64,000 bases of DNA. Origin: Candidatus Omnitrophota bacterium. Its GTDB lineage: Bacteria > Omnitrophota > Gorgyraeia > Duberdicusellales > 4484-171. The notes under the pieces are model-generated. The model did not search any database and had not been told where the DNA came from. It was given only the letters and a program-made list of their open reading frames with translations. A program made the translations under genes and the position numbers. Below, one piece after another: positions 1-26,295 of this stretch (position 1 is the stretch's first letter; each line of letters starts with the position of its first letter). Location of the stretch: NCBI GenBank assembly GCA_037146775.1, contig JBAWWL010000007.1:1536-65535 (forward strand). The letters are read 5' to 3'.

Positions 1-920
<920 letters not shown>

Positions 921-1036
921 TACTCAGCCTTATTTTTCTATTGACGAATTAACGGATTAAAGAATTAACTAATTGAAGAATTATTTAATTCGATAGTCCG
1001 TTGGTTCGTTAATGTTTTAATCCTTTAATTGACATT

Positions 1037-1155
1037 TATGGGGGTGCTCACACCGAAGGGGCCACACCCGTTCCCATTCCGAATACGGCCGTTAAGCCCT
1101 TCAGGGCCAATGGTACTGCCTTCGAAAGGAGGTGGGAGAGTAGGTCGGTGCCCCC
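1037..1155 (+). rRNA. rrf: 5S rRNA
   Basis: About 118 nt immediately downstream of the 23S with the 5S signature (CCGTTCCCATTCCGAACACGG-like CCGTTCCCATTCCGAATACGGCCGTTAAGCCC and a 3' GAGAGTAGGTCGGTGCCCC helix). Ends are approximate. Confidence 0.8.
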
Positions 1156-1377
1156 TTGTCTTTTTCTCCTTAAAAGGAGGAAAAAACAAATTGTCACCGC
1201 TAAAAGATTAGGCGGATAGTAACCAATCTCTCCGCCTGAGGCGAGCAAAGCGGCGGGCAAAGCGCAAACTTCAAAATTCCAAACAAGAAATTAGAATTCA
1301 AAAAACATCCGTTTATTTTACTGCCTCGGTGGTGACCTTTGTTGATTTTTCCTTTCTTTAGCATATAATATTTAAAT

Positions 1378-13213: not shown

Positions 13214-13286
13214 GGGCCATTAGCTCAGTTGGTAGAGCAGGACACTCTTAATGTCAAGGTCGTAGGTTCAAATCCTACATGGCCCA
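13214..13286 (+). tRNA. tRNA-Lys (anticodon CTT)
   Basis: Cloverleaf folded by hand: acceptor GGGCCAT/ATGGCCC, D-arm GCTC-AGTTGGTA-GAGC, anticodon loop CTCTTAA, T-arm GTAGG-TTCAAAT-CCTAC, discriminator A. No encoded CCA. Confidence 0.85.
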
Positions 13287-13386
13287 TGTTTTTATTCGAG
13301 ATAGGTAGCAAGTAGCGAGCATAGAGTAGCGAGATAAAAAATCAATAAAATAAGTCGTTTTACTTGCTACGCCTTACTTGCTGGCT

Positions 13387-13812
13387 ATGAAAAAGTACGA
13401 ACTGTTAGAACATACTGCTGATGTACGAGTTCGAGTGCACGGTAAAACGCTAGAGTTATTATTTAAGCATGCCGCAATAGCGCTTTTTGACCTTCTTGTA
13501 AACTATAAACCTAAGAGAAAAAAGACACGGGAAATCAGCCTTGAGGCGGAAACGCTGGAAGAACTTTTTGTTAACTGGCTCAACGAACTTATCTCCATAT
13601 TTTATGCCTACAAATTTTTGCCGTCAGATTATAATATTATTATTGTAGACGCCGAACATCGTAAAACCATGCATGCAAGCGTCAAGGGAGAATTCTTTAA
13701 TCCCTATGATAATAAGAAAATAAATCAGGAGATAAAAGCCGCTACCTATCATAATCTTAAGATAGAGAAAGACAAAAAAGGGTACCGCGCGGAAATTATA
13801 TTTGATGTATGA
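13387..13812 (+). CDS. Archease (RtcB activator)
   Basis: N-terminal YELLEHTADVRVRV archease signature. Lies 1.8 kb upstream of rtcB. The listed start at 13378 is TTG; the ATG at 13387 is preferred. Confidence 0.8.
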   Translation: MKKYELLEHTADVRVRVHGKTLELLFKHAAIALFDLLVNYKPKRKKTREISLEAETLEELFVNWLNELISIFYAYKFLPSDYNIIIVDAEHRKTMHASVKGEFFNPYDNKKINQEIKAATYHNLKIEKDKKGYRAEIIFDV

Positions 13813-14104
13813 GTAGGCATGTATCGGTAGTGTCATAAGATTTATGAAAAAATAAAAGCAAAAACTTTGATTTTTAAGGTTAATTTTATTGTAACCAGGG
13901 GCGAAGGAAACTCTAAGCCCTAAATAAACTTAAAATGAACCAAGCCCAAAACGAGATAAATTAAGACAAAAGCCTTGTATTTTTTAATATTTTGAGTTTG
14001 GGGTTTGATATTTTGGATTTGTTTAGGGTTTAGCGTTTCGGGTTTAGAGTTTGAAAAACAGAAGATAGTTTTGGCAGTAGGTATGTATCAAGGAGGAGGT
14101 GGCT

Positions 14105-15508
14105 ATGAAAAAGCTATATATATTTGTGGTAAGCATTTTTCTCTCCTTATCTGTCCATGCGCAGGAGAATGTCGAGTTAACGGTTTATAACCAGAATTTC
14201 GCGCTCGTCAAGGACCAGAGAACCTTTGAATTCAATAAGGGCGCGAATAAGATCGAATTTAGAGATGTTGCTTCGTTGATTGAGCCAACCTCGGTGCATT
14301 TTGTTTCGCTTACCGCGCCCGAATCCTGTTTCATCTTAGAGCAGAATTATGAATACGATTTAATGAGTTCGGACAAATTACTTTCCAAATATATCGATCA
14401 ACCGATCAAAGTGATTACAAAAGACGAAAAGAACTATGATGGCATACTCGCTAGTTATGACGCGATTAACTTAGTTTTGAATAATGGCGGGGCATTGAGC
14501 ATGATCACAAGAGCCGATAACGTTAAGCAGATAAGTTTTGAAAAAATCCCCGAAGGCCTCATTACTAAACCGACTTTAGTCTGGGAGATTGACAGCAAAA
14601 AGGAAGGAAAACATTTAACCGAAGTATCATATTTGACCGGCGGCGTTAACTGGAATTGTGAATATGTCGCGGTTTTGGACAAGAACGATAAAAACATTTC
14701 TCTTGATGGCTGGGTCAGCGTTGACAATAGAAGCGGCGCAAGCTACAAAAATGCGAAATTAAAGCTTATCGCCGGCGATGTCAAAAGGGTGGCCAATGCT
14801 TCCATGGAAAGGGCAGGTATGATGAAAGCATCGTATGCGTTAGCCGAAAAGGCTGTTCCACAGTTTGAGGAAAAAGCATTCTTTGAGTACCATATGTATA
14901 CATTGCAGCGTAAGGCTACTTTAAAGAATAATCAGACTAAACAGATATCGCTCCTTTCCGCCGCCAATATTCCGATTAAGAAGTTATTTGTTTATGATCC
15001 GGTAGATTATTATGGGTGGAATTGGTATTATTACGATACCCGTCCGGACAATAAAGAGCAGAAAATAAAGGTAAAATTGGAATTGGTGAACAGCAAACAG
15101 AATAATCTTGGGATTCCTTTGCCGAAAGGCAAAGTCAAAGTTTATAAAAAAGATACCGATGAAAGTTTGCAATTTGCCGGAGAAGATCAGATTGACCATA
15201 CGCCAAAAGATGAGACTGTCAGGCTTTATATCGGCGATGCCTTTGACGTGGTGGGTGAACGCAAACAGACCAGCTATCGCACCGGCCATGACTGGGCGGA
15301 AGAAAGCTTTGAGGTTTCATTACGAAATCATAAAGACAGTAATATTGAAGTAATGGTGGTAGAGCATCTTTACCGCTATGCGAACTGGAAAATTATTGAG
15401 AAATCCCACGAGTTTAACAAGAAAAATTCTAATACCGTAGATTTTAAGGTTCCGGTTTCTTCTAATGGTGAAACAAAGGTAACGTATACAGTGAGATATT
15501 GGTGGTAG
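14105..15508 (+). CDS. Secreted DUF4139/DUF4140-family protein (mucoidy-inhibitor MuiA-like), function unknown
   Basis: Signal peptide. N-terminal ELTVYNQNFALVKDQRTFEF pattern characteristic of this family (from memory). Strong AGGAGGAGG RBS before the ATG at 14105. Confidence 0.55.
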   Translation: MKKLYIFVVSIFLSLSVHAQENVELTVYNQNFALVKDQRTFEFNKGANKIEFRDVASLIEPTSVHFVSLTAPESCFILEQNYEYDLMSSDKLLSKYIDQPIKVITKDEKNYDGILASYDAINLVLNNGGALSMITRADNVKQISFEKIPEGLITKPTLVWEIDSKKEGKHLTEVSYLTGGVNWNCEYVAVLDKNDKNISLDGWVSVDNRSGASYKNAKLKLIAGDVKRVANASMERAGMMKASYALAEKAVPQFEEKAFFEYHMYTLQRKATLKNNQTKQISLLSAANIPIKKLFVYDPVDYYGWNWYYYDTRPDNKEQKIKVKLELVNSKQNNLGIPLPKGKVKVYKKDTDESLQFAGEDQIDHTPKDETVRLYIGDAFDVVGERKQTSYRTGHDWAEESFEVSLRNHKDSNIEVMVVEHLYRYANWKIIEKSHEFNKKNSNTVDFKVPVSSNGETKVTYTVRYWW

Positions 15509-15640: not shown

Positions 15641-18613
15641 ATGTGGCAGGGTGAGTTAGAAAAAATCAACGACTATAAATTCAGGATTCCCAGAAGCTAT
15701 AAACCGGGAATGCGCGTGGACGGTATTATTTACGCGAACGAAAAGCTTTTGGTTGATATTAAACGCGATAAAGCGCCGGAGCAGGTGGCAAACGTTGCGT
15801 TTTTACCCGGTATAGTCAAATATTCCTTGGCAATGCCTGATATCCATTGGGGTTACGGTTTTTGTTTAACAAGGGACGCCAAAATATTAACTAATTTTGG
15901 TTTCTATAAAACAATCTGTGATTTTGAAAAAGATTGGTCTACGTGTTATCTCAAGAGCATGGATTTAAATTCGCAGAAACCAACAGAGACCCCCATTCTA
16001 AAATTTATAAAGTTAAAACCAAAAACATTATTTAAAGTAACTACTAAGACAGGTTATGAAATCAAAGCTACAGGAGATCATCCATTCCTGACGCCTTTCG
16101 GTATGAAGCCGATACAGCAATTGACCGCTCAAGATAAAGTAGCACTTTTTCCTTTTCGGGGAATTCAGTACGAACATGCTTCTACCAAAACCATCATTAC
16201 GGAGAAAGATGTTAAAAAAACTTTATTAAGATTGGCAAGGCGGCCAAATACTCCAAAATTCGAAATAATATTAGAGAAAATAAGAATGCGTAAACTTATA
16301 CCATTAACTTATGATCACCCAAGTTTGCCTTATATTTTAAAAATAATGGGTTTTATTTTCGGCGACGGTTCAATGAATTTCATCGGGAAAAAAGGAGATG
16401 GCATAATACATTTTTCGGGCAAGCCCGAAGATTTAGAGAACGTAAGAAAGGATATAGAAAAAATTGGCTATACGCCAAGTCCTATTCATTATCAGAAGTC
16501 AAAACTTGCTATCACTGGTAAAAATTATGATTCCTATTCGTTTGTGGTTAATGCATCTAGTTTGGTGGTTCTTTTGGAGACGTTAGGGGTTCCGCGCGGT
16601 ACGAAGGTGACTCAGTCATATAGGGTCCCCGAATGGATTTTGAAATCACCACTTTGGCAGAAACGTTTATTTTTAGCCTCTCTTTTTGGGTGTGAATTAA
16701 GAATGCCTCATAGACGATTGGGGAGGAGAGGCTATTTTAACGCCCCTGTTTTTCCTATGGCAAAAAGCGAAGAACTCATAAAGAATGGAAAAGAATTTTT
16801 AAATGATCTTGAGCGGCTTTTGAAAGAATTTGGAGTAAGAACAATCGGCATCAACATGAGAAGAAGGCATATTAGTAGAAGGGGGATAGTCACAAGGTCG
16901 TTGGAATTGTTAATTTCTCCGTCGCCGGAAAATCTTTTTAATCTATGGGGCAAGATTGGTTTTGAATATAATCTTAAAAGGTCTTTTGTATCAAATGTGG
17001 CGGTGCATTACCTAAAGTTGAAATTGAGGATATTGAAAGAGAAAGAAGAAGCAGTAAAAATAACTATCCCTAAATTGCTAAAAAATGGGTTAAGTTACCA
17101 AAAGATCGCTCTTCAATTGGCAGGAAATTCTCTAACCAAGAGGTTTATCATAGATATTTGTTGGAAGCTTAATAAAGGTAAAGTGGTTGTGCCGCGAATC
17201 CCTGCGAGTTTTCCTTTTTTTGAGAATCATCTCAGAGAAATTAGGAAAGGGCTTGGTGATAGTGGAATGCTTTGGGACGAAATTAAGACAATAGAAAGTA
17301 TTCCTTCCCAAGATTTTGTCTATGATTTTACCGTATCCCATCCGGATCATAATTTTATCGCAAATAATTTTGTTGTTTCGAACTGCATAGGTGGAGTTGC
17401 GGCAACCGATCCGCAAGATGGCGGCGTAATTTCTCCCGGAGGCGTGGGGTACGATATCAACTGTGGGGTGCGTCTGCTTAGAACCAATCTAAGCGTTGAA
17501 GATCTTAAAACTAAAGTAAATAAAATTGTAGATACTTTGTATAATGATATTCCTTCCGGCGTGGGCTCGACCGGTGAAATTAAGGTTTCTCATCAGGAAG
17601 AGAGGAAGTTACTTCTCGAAGGCGCAAGGTGGGCGGTTTTGCGTGGCTTAGGAGTCAAAGATGACCTGGAGTACTGTGAAGAATACGGAGCAATCGAGGG
17701 TGCGGATCCTGACAGTGTTTCTCGTCGGGCTTACGAGCGAGGCAAGGAGCAGGCCGGGACCTTAGGCAGTGGCAACCATTTTATCGAAGTGCAGGTTATT
17801 GAGGATATATACGATAAAGATGTAGCCCAGGTACTCGGATTAGACATCGGTCAGGTTACGGTGATGATCCATTCTGGTTCGCGCGGGTTGGGCTATCAGG
17901 TCTGTGACGATTATGCCCGGGAAATGATTGGATGTTTATCGAAATATTCTATAAATGTTCCTGATCCCCAATTGGCTTGCGCGCCCGTTAATAGTCCTGA
18001 AGCGAAAAATTATATCGGTGCAATGCGGGCTGCGGCAAATTATGCCTGGGCAAACAGGCAAGTGCTGATGCATTTAACCAGAGAAAGTTTTGGGCGAGTA
18101 TTTTCCAAGAGTTGGCAATCTTTGGGGATGGATTTGATCTATGATGTTGCGCATAATATCGCGAAATTTGAAAAACATATAGTAGATGGTAAAGAAAAGA
18201 TGCTTTGTATCCATCGTAAGGGCGCTACTCGTGCGTTCGGGCCGCAGCATCCGGAACTACCTGCACGATATAAAGCTATCGGCCAGCCGGTTATTATTCC
18301 CGGAGACATGGGCAGGGCATCGTATCTTTTGGTGGGGACCAAAAAAGCCGAAGAGGAAACATTTGCCAGTACTTGTCATGGTGCCGGTAGAGTTGCTTCG
18401 CGGCACCAAGCGTTGAAGACCATCGATTTAAATGATTTATTGCATGAGTTAAAAGCTAAGGGAATAGAGGTTAGGGCAACTAGTAAAAAAACCATTGTCG
18501 AAGAGGCTCCTGCGGTGTATAAGAATGTAGATGACGTGGTGGAGATAGTGCACAAGACAGGCCTGGCAAAGAAAGTCTGCAGGATGCGGCCGGTTTGTGT
18601 GGTGAAAGGCTAA
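15641..18613 (+). CDS. rtcB: RNA-splicing ligase RtcB containing a 507-aa intein
   Basis: N-extein ends MPDIHWGYGF. C-extein resumes CIGGVAATDPQDGGVISPGGVGYDINCGV and continues with RtcB motifs (GSGNHFIEVQ, HSGSRGLG, HRKGATRA, TCHGAGR). Exteins sum to about 483 aa, the normal RtcB size. Confidence 0.85.
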   Translation: MWQGELEKINDYKFRIPRSYKPGMRVDGIIYANEKLLVDIKRDKAPEQVANVAFLPGIVKYSLAMPDIHWGYGFCLTRDAKILTNFGFYKTICDFEKDWSTCYLKSMDLNSQKPTETPILKFIKLKPKTLFKVTTKTGYEIKATGDHPFLTPFGMKPIQQLTAQDKVALFPFRGIQYEHASTKTIITEKDVKKTLLRLARRPNTPKFEIILEKIRMRKLIPLTYDHPSLPYILKIMGFIFGDGSMNFIGKKGDGIIHFSGKPEDLENVRKDIEKIGYTPSPIHYQKSKLAITGKNYDSYSFVVNASSLVVLLETLGVPRGTKVTQSYRVPEWILKSPLWQKRLFLASLFGCELRMPHRRLGRRGYFNAPVFPMAKSEELIKNGKEFLNDLERLLKEFGVRTIGINMRRRHISRRGIVTRSLELLISPSPENLFNLWGKIGFEYNLKRSFVSNVAVHYLKLKLRILKEKEEAVKITIPKLLKNGLSYQKIALQLAGNSLTKRFIIDICWKLNKGKVVVPRIPASFPFFENHLREIRKGLGDSGMLWDEIKTIESIPSQDFVYDFTVSHPDHNFIANNFVVSNCIGGVAATDPQDGGVISPGGVGYDINCGVRLLRTNLSVEDLKTKVNKIVDTLYNDIPSGVGSTGEIKVSHQEERKLLLEGARWAVLRGLGVKDDLEYCEEYGAIEGADPDSVSRRAYERGKEQAGTLGSGNHFIEVQVIEDIYDKDVAQVLGLDIGQVTVMIHSGSRGLGYQVCDDYAREMIGCLSKYSINVPDPQLACAPVNSPEAKNYIGAMRAAANYAWANRQVLMHLTRESFGRVFSKSWQSLGMDLIYDVAHNIAKFEKHIVDGKEKMLCIHRKGATRAFGPQHPELPARYKAIGQPVIIPGDMGRASYLLVGTKKAEEETFASTCHGAGRVASRHQALKTIDLNDLLHELKAKGIEVRATSKKTIVEEAPAVYKNVDDVVEIVHKTGLAKKVCRMRPVCVVKG
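15863..17383 (+). mobile_element. Intein with LAGLIDADG homing endonuclease, inserted in rtcB
   Basis: Starts with Cys (CLTRDAKILT), ends ...FVVSN followed by +1 Cys. Internal LAGLIDADG-type motifs IMGFIFGDGSM and LASLFGCE. 1521 nt, in frame. Confidence 0.75.
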
Positions 18614-25637: not shown

Positions 25638-25998
25638 TTTTGCTGGCACATTTGATTACTGTTGTTGACGCTGTGAGATAATTAAGTTATAATTGGAAAA
25701 TATTTTTTTGATAATTCGGTTTTTCTTACTTCAATATAGCTAAAAACACGCATGTTGGTGGGTAACTTTTATTAGCCAGTGTCTATAATGACGTGTTATA
25801 GATTTTTGTTATTGTTCATATCATATTTAATCTTTAATTTTTGATCTTTGATATTTGATTTTTAGTTCCCCGGTAGCTTCCGCCTCTCTGCCTTCGGCAG
25901 AGGGCGAGACCTCGCCACACGAAGGCGTGGCGGGCAATTGGTTTCTAGGTACAACCTTTGTTTAGATAGAAACCATTAGATGTTCTTTTAAAATTTAT

Positions 25999-26295
25999 TC
26001 CCCGGTAGCTCAATTGGTAGAGCGGCTGGCTGTGCGAAGAAGTGCAGCTTTCCCGAGAAATCGGGATTGAAAAAGCGGGCTAATTCAGGGAACCCCTATT
26101 CCATGTAAATGGAAGGGCAATCCTGAGCTAAGTGGCTAGAGCGAAAGCTTTAGCCTAAATGTGCAGAGACTATATACCCGCTGCCTAACCCCGTATCGTA
26201 TACGGGTATGGTGATGAGATAGTCCAGGCCTTAAAGTAATTTAAGGGATACCTGTAACCAGTAGGTCGTAGGTTCGAGCCCTACCCGGGGAGCCA
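25999..26295 (+). tRNA. tRNA (read as Asn, anticodon GTT) split by a 221-nt group I intron; exons 25999-26033 and 26255-26295
   Basis: Exon 1 TCCCCGG-TA-GCTC-AATTGGTA-GAGC-G-GCTGG-CTGT. Exon 2 TAA-CCAGT-AGGTC-GTAGG-TTCGAGC-CCTAC-CCGGGGA-G-CCA. Spliced length 76 nt with a 7-nt loop CTGTTAA. Confidence 0.7.
26034..26254 (+). ncRNA. Group I self-splicing intron in the tRNA anticodon loop
   Basis: 5' exon ends in U and pairs with an internal guide GCAGC (26044-26048), giving a U-G wobble at the splice site. The intron ends in G. R-like element GTGCAGAGACTATA (26161-26174) and S-like element ATGAGATAGTCC (26214-26226) match the group I consensus R/S sequences. Confidence 0.65.

Follow-up and report, generated by a model that had tools for sequence, protein, structure and literature searches.

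The 64,000-nucleotide (nt) stretch analysed here (the window; positions 1,536 to 65,535 of contig JBAWWL010000007.1 in assembly GCA_037146775.1) comes from a Candidatus Omnitrophota bacterium, and it carries an rtcB gene that is interrupted in frame by a segment of 507 codons, inserted exactly between codons 74 (Phe) and 75 (Cys). This segment is very probably a mobile class-1 intein with a single-chain, two-motif LAGLIDADG homing endonuclease, which probably entered the Omnitrophota gene by horizontal transfer, and for which splicing and homing are predicted. Its family of RtcB inteins is very large and spans bacteria and archaea; most members are inserted at the position of Cys98 in Pyrococcus horikoshii (Pho) RtcB, and the sub-clade that includes the window intein is located 26 codons upstream of this position. 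The element is a fairly ordinary mobile one, i.e., a previously unannotated member of a recognised kind.

The rtcB precursor and the architecture of its intein

The intein begins with CLTRDAKILT and finishes with NNFVVSN; it follows the HWGYGF motif of RtcB (precursor residues 69-74; nt 15845..15862), and the next codon, TGC (17384-17386), encodes Cys+1. An earlier annotation made from the sequence of the window (the original prediction) had placed a 507-residue in-frame insert at 15863-17383 after HWGYGF, with Cys at its start and Asn followed by Cys at its end, and this is correct to the base. Removal of the insert in silico leaves an RtcB of 483 residues, in agreement with the about 483 residues expected, and the spliced sequence is collinear throughout with P. 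horikoshii RtcB (PDB code 1UC2; residues 6-483 against 5-481; E 7e-168) without a gap at the junction. The precursor matches the Pfam RtcB family with E 3.5e-170, and alignment to Pho RtcB reveals a complete catalytic set, i.e., D98, C101, H206, H237, H331 and H406 in spliced numbering. In the Pho enzyme, D95, C98, H203, H234 and H329 are the metal ligands, and His404 is the nucleophile (PMC9745838). A protein identical to the precursor is deposited at NCBI as MEI8349805.1, 'MAG: RtcB family protein [Candidatus Omnitrophota bacterium]' (MAG, metagenome-assembled genome), in a record that is silent on the intein, and the same protein is encoded on an independent Logan assembly contig. Since the Logan contig and the NCBI MAG agree in this way, the insert is not an assembly artefact.

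The intein blocks A, B, F and G, against which the original prediction had proposed a check, are all present (Table 1), and the Pfam Intein_splicing profile (PF14890) scores 68-70 bits with a cutoff of 35.8. As in class-1 inteins, there is a Cys1, a TxxH motif in block B (the roles of its Thr and His are described in PMC4031507), Asp and His at positions F:4 and F:13, and a terminal Asn507 followed by Cys+1; the profile match, the Hint fold and collinear orthologues free of the insert also agree with this class. The departure is at the penultimate position, G:6, where a residue other than the expected His is found. Block B aligns with block B of the Npu and Ssp DnaB inteins, both of which phmmer detects (E 9e-9 for Npu and 5e-6 for Ssp) through blocks B, F and G, and a family profile run against solved structures matches dozens of inteins, e.g., 1MI8 at E 5e-19. 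The two DnaB mini-inteins are the closest solved relatives by sequence, however, they are without an endonuclease domain (chains of 142-158 residues), reside in another host protein and end in HN.

Conservation was evaluated in two alignments: A1, with 45 relatives at 25-82% identity, and A2, a cleaner intein-only alignment of 13 sequences. Invariant in A1 are D168, K301, V486, H496, N497, F498 and N507, with H73, E278 (at least 90% of the sequences), Y487, D488 and Cys+1 being nearly so. In A2, invariance extends to C1, D72-H73-P74, G167-D168, F275-G276-E278, K301, Y487-D488, H496-N497-F498 and N507. A six-frame hmmsearch of the window for further copies of the family returned the rtcB copy alone.

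Two LAGLIDADG-type motifs are present in the intein, as had been predicted, namely ILKIMGFIFGDGS (residues 158-170) and KRLFLASLFGCE (residues 267-278), and both end in one of the conserved acidic residues (GFIFGD168G and SLFGCE278). From its invariance, a role in the active site may be assigned also to Lys301. The AlphaFold2 model of the intein, calculated with 45 homologues in the input, has a mean predicted local distance difference test score (pLDDT) of 95.1 and a predicted template modelling score (pTM) of 0.92. Motif 1 is located at the C-terminal end of helix 155-166, E278 ends helix 264-278, and the order of secondary-structure elements in the model fits the duplicated alpha-beta-beta-alpha-beta-beta-alpha topology of LAGLIDADG endonucleases. 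The top Foldseek matches in the PDB are the TliVMA intein (PDB code 7QSS; 1e-18), PI-PkoII (PDB code 2CW7; 3e-14), the PhoVMA intein and PI-SceI (4e-11). Stand-alone LAGLIDADG proteins, i.e., I-WcaI, I-SceI, I-AniI, I-OnuI and the bI3 maturase, follow with E values of 7e-6 to 3e-4, and mini-inteins are matched with root-mean-square deviations of 1.4-2 Å over about 96 residues. The Pfam intein match, the fold and the conservation agree with the original prediction that this bacterial rtcB gene contains an intein with a LAGLIDADG endonuclease.

In PI-SceI, PI-PkoII and the Tli and Pho VMA inteins the Hint domain is split by a two-motif LAGLIDADG endonuclease, as it is here, however, these best structural matches are only 11-16% identical to the window intein and have a VMA ATPase or a DNA polymerase as host. 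They carry the penultimate His. Another difference is the extra helical segment in the window intein (residues 366-461), for which a separate Foldseek search against the PDB gave no significant match (best E 1.1, with weak helix-turn-helix (HTH)-like matches to sigma region 4, DeoR and Myb-like domains). The homologue P0105 has sub-threshold Pfam HTH matches in a possibly equivalent region. The extra segment may bind DNA.

From these features a pathway can be proposed. The 990-residue precursor would be inactive as a ligase. Cys1 would undergo an N-S acyl shift, aided by T70 and H73 of block B, and the resulting thioester would be attacked by Cys+1. Asn507 would then cyclise with the aid of D488 and H496 of block F, with Ser506 in the usual place of His, and an S-N shift would yield a 483-residue RtcB that reads GYGF-C-IGGV across the junction, along with a free 58-kDa intein. 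The free intein, using D168, E278 and a divalent metal, would cut intein-less rtcB near the sequence coding for GYGF/CIGG (here and below, a slash marks the junction), and repair of the break from an intein-bearing copy would propagate the element, which is proposed to have reached the Omnitrophota lineage by horizontal transfer.

Table 1 Coordinates of the rtcB gene, its intein and neighbouring genes in the window
Feature	Position	Strand	Remarks
rtcB precursor open reading frame	15641..18613	+	990 residues including the intein; end coordinate includes the stop codon; uninterrupted; Pfam RtcB and Intein_splicing
N-extein, residues 1-74, ending MPDIHWGYGF	15641..15862	+	Aligns with Pho RtcB residues 5-72
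Intein, 507 residues (Cys1 to Asn507)	15863..17383	+	1521 nt, 507 codons, in frame
Splicing block A (CLTRDAKILT)	15863..15892	+	Cys1 is the nucleophile; C1 invariant in A2
Splicing block B (GYEIKATGDHPFLT)	16052..16093	+	TxxH from T70 and H73 (T70-G-D-H73); D72-H73-P74 invariant in A2
LAGLIDADG motif 1 (YILKIMGFIFGDGS)	16331..16372	+	D168, putative catalytic Asp; G167-D168 invariant in 45 sequences
LAGLIDADG motif 2 (QKRLFLASLFGCEL)	16658..16699	+	E278, putative catalytic Glu; F275-G276-E278 invariant in A2
Lys301, basic residue of the endonuclease core	16763..16765	+	Invariant in A1 and A2
Extra helical region, residues 366-461, between endonuclease core and block F	16958..17245	+	Model pLDDT 92
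Splicing block F (DFVYDFTVSHPDHNFIA)	17312..17362	+	D488 is F:4 and H496 is F:13; V486, Y487, D488, H496, N497 and F498 conserved
Splicing block G (NNFVVSN) and Cys+1	17363..17386	+	Ser506 penultimate, Asn507 terminal, Cys+1 first C-extein residue
C-extein, 409 residues and stop	17384..18613	+	Holds all RtcB catalytic residues
Codon of the metal-bridging Cys (Pho Cys98), classical intein site (site b)	17462..17464	+	Unoccupied; DINC codon run unbroken
Archease gene (RtcB activator)	13378..13812	+	Pfam Archease E 3.2e-38; 1.8 kb upstream of rtcB, same strand
DUF4139 gene, between archease and rtcB	14099..15508	+	Pfam DUF4139 33.3 bits (cutoff 31.8); syntenic copy in L121

Insertion site, distribution and relatives at other sites

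The window insertion (GYGF/C) corresponds to the boundary of F72 and P73 in Pho RtcB, and it is not the classical allele (DIN/C), in which the splice junction of P. horikoshii RtcB is at Cys98 (PMC4150793), the residue that bridges both Mn ions (PMC9745838). Among 120 intein-free homologues (P0117-P0236), the empty insertion site has Cys in 48, Pro in 35, Ser in 30 and Ala in 6, and the Cys98 position is Cys in all 120. Cys+1 of the window intein, at this variable position, is not a functional RtcB residue. The original prediction had assigned the insertion to the metal-binding region of RtcB; this is not borne out, as the junction lies 26 residues upstream of the C98 equivalent, at a position that varies among Cys, Ser, Pro and Ala. 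The frequent Cys and Ser at the empty site could have been left behind by inteins since lost, or could be variants that existed beforehand and allow invasion.

The window intein shares its host enzyme with the P. horikoshii RtcB (PH1602) intein, and the mature form of PH1602 likewise arises through protein splicing (PMC4150793). Members of the window family at the PH1602 site have a Cys+1 nucleophile and a LAGLIDADG domain, as in the window intein, and many DIN/C inteins are 30-60% identical to it. The differences are the location 26 codons upstream and the nature of the +1 residue, which is non-catalytic in the window protein, whereas Cys98 bridges the metals. The comparison with archaeal RtcB inteins that had been suggested thus identifies another site in P. 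horikoshii but the same site in the complete genome of Methanocaldococcus sp. 28A (L043). The L043 intein at this exact site (GYGF/C and LVSN/CIGGV) is 43-46% identical to the window intein over the full length and belongs to the same clade; its host is archaeal, however, and has a second intein at the DIN/C site (VVHN/C, 30% identical), whereas the window gene has one.

A genome scan with one genome per species identified relatives of the window intein in at least 523 species genomes, of which the best 80 loci are described here. These loci are mostly bacterial and represent Omnitrophota, Planctomycetia, Chloroflexota, Poribacteria, Atribacterota, groups of the candidate phyla radiation (CPR), Clostridia and others. 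The original view of RtcB inteins as classically archaeal, and of a bacterial one as notable in itself, is not upheld by this distribution, nor by an earlier survey that counted 27 bacterial and 10 archaeal RtcB inteins (Novikova et al. 2016, PMC4760082), the bacterial ones from five phyla, namely Actinobacteria, Aquificae, Bacteroidetes, Cyanobacteria and Deinococcus-Thermus. Matches in the viral database IMG/VR were considered as candidates for a viral vector and rejected, being either distant inteins (at most 26% identity) or restricted to blocks F and G.

Presence of the element is polymorphic in the host lineage. None of the 120 RtcBs most similar to that of the window (70-84% identity, Omnitrophota where named) has an intein, and all are of 460-496 residues when full-length, or shorter partial sequences. 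The closest intein-free orthologue is 84% identical to the exteins. In L121 (GCA_030692055.1), the gene order archease-DUF4139-rtcB-serS is preserved and the insertion site is empty, and the rtcB genes of L119 and L121 are 1452 nt long, as are the joined window exteins, with a gap-free alignment across the junction. In contrast, the closest relatives of the intein (60-70% identity) are found in RtcBs only 50-70% identical to the window host, in MAGs labelled Omnitrophota, Planctomycetia, Clostridia and Saccharibacteria; several of these relatives are more alike as inteins than their host proteins are, e.g., 69.6% as compared with 59.8%. The GC content is 0.36 in the intein and 0.47 in the exteins. 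The patchy presence, the empty syntenic alleles, the excess of intein over host similarity and the GC difference fit a horizontally acquired homing element.

A separate observation concerns the 45 nt that precede the insertion (15818..15862), which are identical to L121 (6178..6222) at 43 of 45 positions, with 26 of 26 in one run, the whole genes being 75% identical. In this comparison of two sequences, the similarity could be due to strong constraint on the codons of the LAMPDIHWGYGF motif, or to co-conversion of a tract next to the insertion.

Insertion points were mapped in 113 protein matches and the 80 genomic loci, and are named sites a, b and c for the purpose of this analysis. Site b (DIN/C, equivalent to Pho Cys98) accounts for the majority, with 63 inteins in the 80 loci, some of which carry two. 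Thirteen inteins in these loci, scored on both flanks, are at site a (GYGF/C, as in the window), and L005 has a site-a C-terminal flank. Site c is represented by P0045 and directly follows His234 (Pho numbering), a ligand of Mn1 (VVMFH/C at the N-terminal and TGN/CGSRGFGH at the C-terminal junction), with Cys replacing the usual Ser or Thr at +1. The family extends beyond RtcB to ribosomal protein S12, with inteins at KQPNSAxRK/C in P0089, P0091 and P0099 (MAGs of Nanoarchaeota and Nitrososphaeria), and to thioredoxin, with an intein exactly at the W/CGPC active site in P0105; the S12 and thioredoxin inteins are about 30% identical to the window intein. Two homologous inteins in one rtcB gene, at sites a and b and hence 26 codons apart, are found in P0001, P0002, P0022, L012, L038, L075 and L043.

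In a neighbour-joining tree of 114 inteins, all of the 20 site-a inteins and three site-b inteins (P0006, L009 and L010, from CPR-type bacteria) form one clade inside the site-b diversity, with bootstrap support of 71% in 200 replicates, and site a alone is never monophyletic. The three site-b members are 55-60% identical to the window intein, however, this similarity is unevenly distributed, with 56-67% in the endonuclease and helical parts and 38-47%, the ordinary site-b level, in the N-terminal Hint part. Such a pattern hints at mosaicism by recombination, and the three inteins may also represent a jump back to site b. Microhomology between sites a and b was considered as a reason for site switching and rejected, as the junction-anchored DNA shares 14 of 48 nt, the background mean of in-frame comparisons along the gene is 12.9, and 180 of 435 positions score as high or higher.

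The usual dividing line between allelic and non-allelic inteins is placed at about 30% identity in PMC10710043, which also describes a eukaryotic case of inteins spreading non-allelically inside a single protein. The occurrence of related inteins (30-60% identical) at three sites in rtcB suggests that the family has switched sites within the gene, and the RtcB intein family looks like a prokaryotic example of non-allelic spread within one protein. We lean, with some reserve, towards an origin of the window sub-clade by a move of a DIN/C intein 78 bp upstream to GYGF/C, with at least one lineage perhaps having moved back, and with the family having also reached the third rtcB site, S12 and thioredoxin; the tree behind this view is a simple neighbour-joining tree with moderate support.

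Alternative explanations

Several points weigh against a mobile, splicing-competent intein. The central domain of the window protein remains below the cutoff of Pfam LAGLIDADG_3 (12.8 bits against 22.5; E 0.15), and its assignment therefore rests on the motifs, the family conservation and the fold; the homologue P0009, which is 50% identical, passes with 28.7 bits. Endonuclease activity could be lost despite the conserved residues. As a route for the transfer, IMG/VR offered no close relatives in the scan with the family alignment, and Ser506 occupies the penultimate position, where His is canonical.

The VVSN/C ending is, however, common to nearly all family members from bacteria and archaea, including those at the metal-bridging Cys in many phyla. 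Because it is retained throughout the family, and also at this essential residue, Ser506 is probably compatible with splicing, and conservation of this extent appears unlike decay. PMC4031507 treats the His at G:6 as an assisting residue and cites work on inteins in which it is absent, the cases cited there being those of Chen, Benner and Perler 2000 and of Sun et al. 2005 on the Ssp DnaE intein. These inteins resemble that of the window in having a residue other than His at G:6 while retaining Asn at G:7 and the assisting residues of block F; the difference is that the window family has Ser at this position, and that this Ser is conserved throughout a large family. The original prediction had named a missing penultimate His among the observations that would speak against an intein, and the His is indeed missing, yet, given a family-wide Ser and His-less inteins documented in the papers that PMC4031507 cites, its absence does not refute the assignment.

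The same residue is the starting point for regarding the gene as a decaying pseudogene, in which the replacement of His by Ser at G:6 would have abolished splicing and left the organism without a working RtcB. Bacteria can generally do without RtcB. However, the reading frame of 2970 nt is unbroken, no catalytic residue of RtcB has been lost, the exteins remain 84% identical to the closest intein-free orthologue, and the VVSN/C ending is shared with nearly all of the family, so that decay of the gene is quite improbable. A more modest proposal is that the intein has retained splicing but lost mobility along with endonuclease activity, the element being kept only since imprecise deletion would destroy RtcB. 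The sub-threshold Pfam score would be in agreement with this, as would the decay of endonuclease activity that follows fixation in the classical homing cycle (PMC10710043). Against it, D168 is invariant and E278 nearly so in 45 sequences down to 25% identity, K301 and many other residues of the endonuclease core are kept, and the core is modelled at very high confidence. Moreover, none of the 120 closest homologues of the host protein contains the intein; it is far from fixation and therefore in a phase when selection on homing activity is expected. Loss of mobility is possible but, on this evidence, doubtful.

An account in which the segment is an insertion domain native to RtcB and kept in the mature enzyme can be regarded as effectively refuted. 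In its favour are the NCBI name of the whole 990-residue product, 'RtcB family protein', and the missing penultimate His. The original prediction had allowed that homologues might show the segment to be such a domain, but the 120 closest homologues are collinear without it; the segment has a Hint and LAGLIDADG fold; Cys1, TxxH, block F, the terminal Asn and Cys+1 are all there; and the same element occurs at other RtcB sites and in two unrelated proteins, ribosomal protein S12 and thioredoxin. Very unlikely, too, is co-option of the intein as a conditional switch, e.g., a redox or temperature switch, that acts on RtcB after translation. Conditional splicing is known for other inteins. The adjacent thiols of Cys1 and Cys+1, and the oxidation sensitivity of the active-site Cys in RtcB (PMC9745838), could be accommodated by such a switch, but the patchy and seemingly horizontally transferred distribution is that of a selfish element, and the +1 position, with Cys, Ser, Pro or Ala in homologues, is not functional in RtcB.

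Gene neighbourhood and implications

The rtcB gene lies in an operon-like cluster with archease and is followed by serS, the order being archease-DUF4139-rtcB-serS. The original prediction had the intein-containing gene next to archease, which holds with respect to strand and cluster but not to adjacency, as the DUF4139 gene lies between the two and the gap is 1.8 kb. A tRNA-Lys(CUU) gene (13214..13286, + strand) precedes the start of archease by about 90 nt. At the beginning of the window (1..1156, + strand) there are a bacterial 23S rRNA gene, of which the 3' end is included, and a gene for 5S rRNA.

Further downstream, at 25999..26295 (+ strand), there is a tRNA gene that was missed by ARAGORN and contains a group I intron of 221 nt (Rfam RF00028 at 26024..26246, with 82.6 bits). 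Exon 1 is assigned to 25999..26033, the intron to 26034..26254 and exon 2 to 26255..26295, and the joined exons give a 76-nt tRNA-Asn(GUU) with an encoded CCA. These putative boundaries were chosen by the splice rules of group I introns, according to which the 5' exon ends in U and the intron in G; a brute-force ARAGORN search for them gave an ambiguous result. About 130 nt upstream, at approximately 25865..25960 (+ strand), the 5' end of this tRNA-Asn recurs in part (TTCCCCGGTAGCT), followed by a GC-rich hairpin-like sequence.

With respect to annotation, the deposited 'RtcB family protein' is about twice the length of the predicted mature product, and the gene carries a selfish element. The biology is otherwise routine, since bacterial RtcB inteins are documented and the family is present in hundreds of species. 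What the window intein and its relatives add is a second, non-catalytic insertion site in rtcB, which is polymorphic (Cys, Ser, Pro or Ala) in empty alleles, and a family-wide Ser in place of the penultimate His, which makes the family a natural test case for the assistance given to Asn cyclisation. Homologous inteins at several sites of one gene also bear on the question of how homing endonucleases change their targets. If the site switching is true, the RtcB inteins would constitute a densely sampled natural series of LAGLIDADG endonucleases, 40-60% identical and with differing targets, in which some genes hold two paralogous inteins next to each other. As prokaryotic elements they would be an exception to the 'allelic rule', and they could serve in studies of the retargeting of homing endonucleases.

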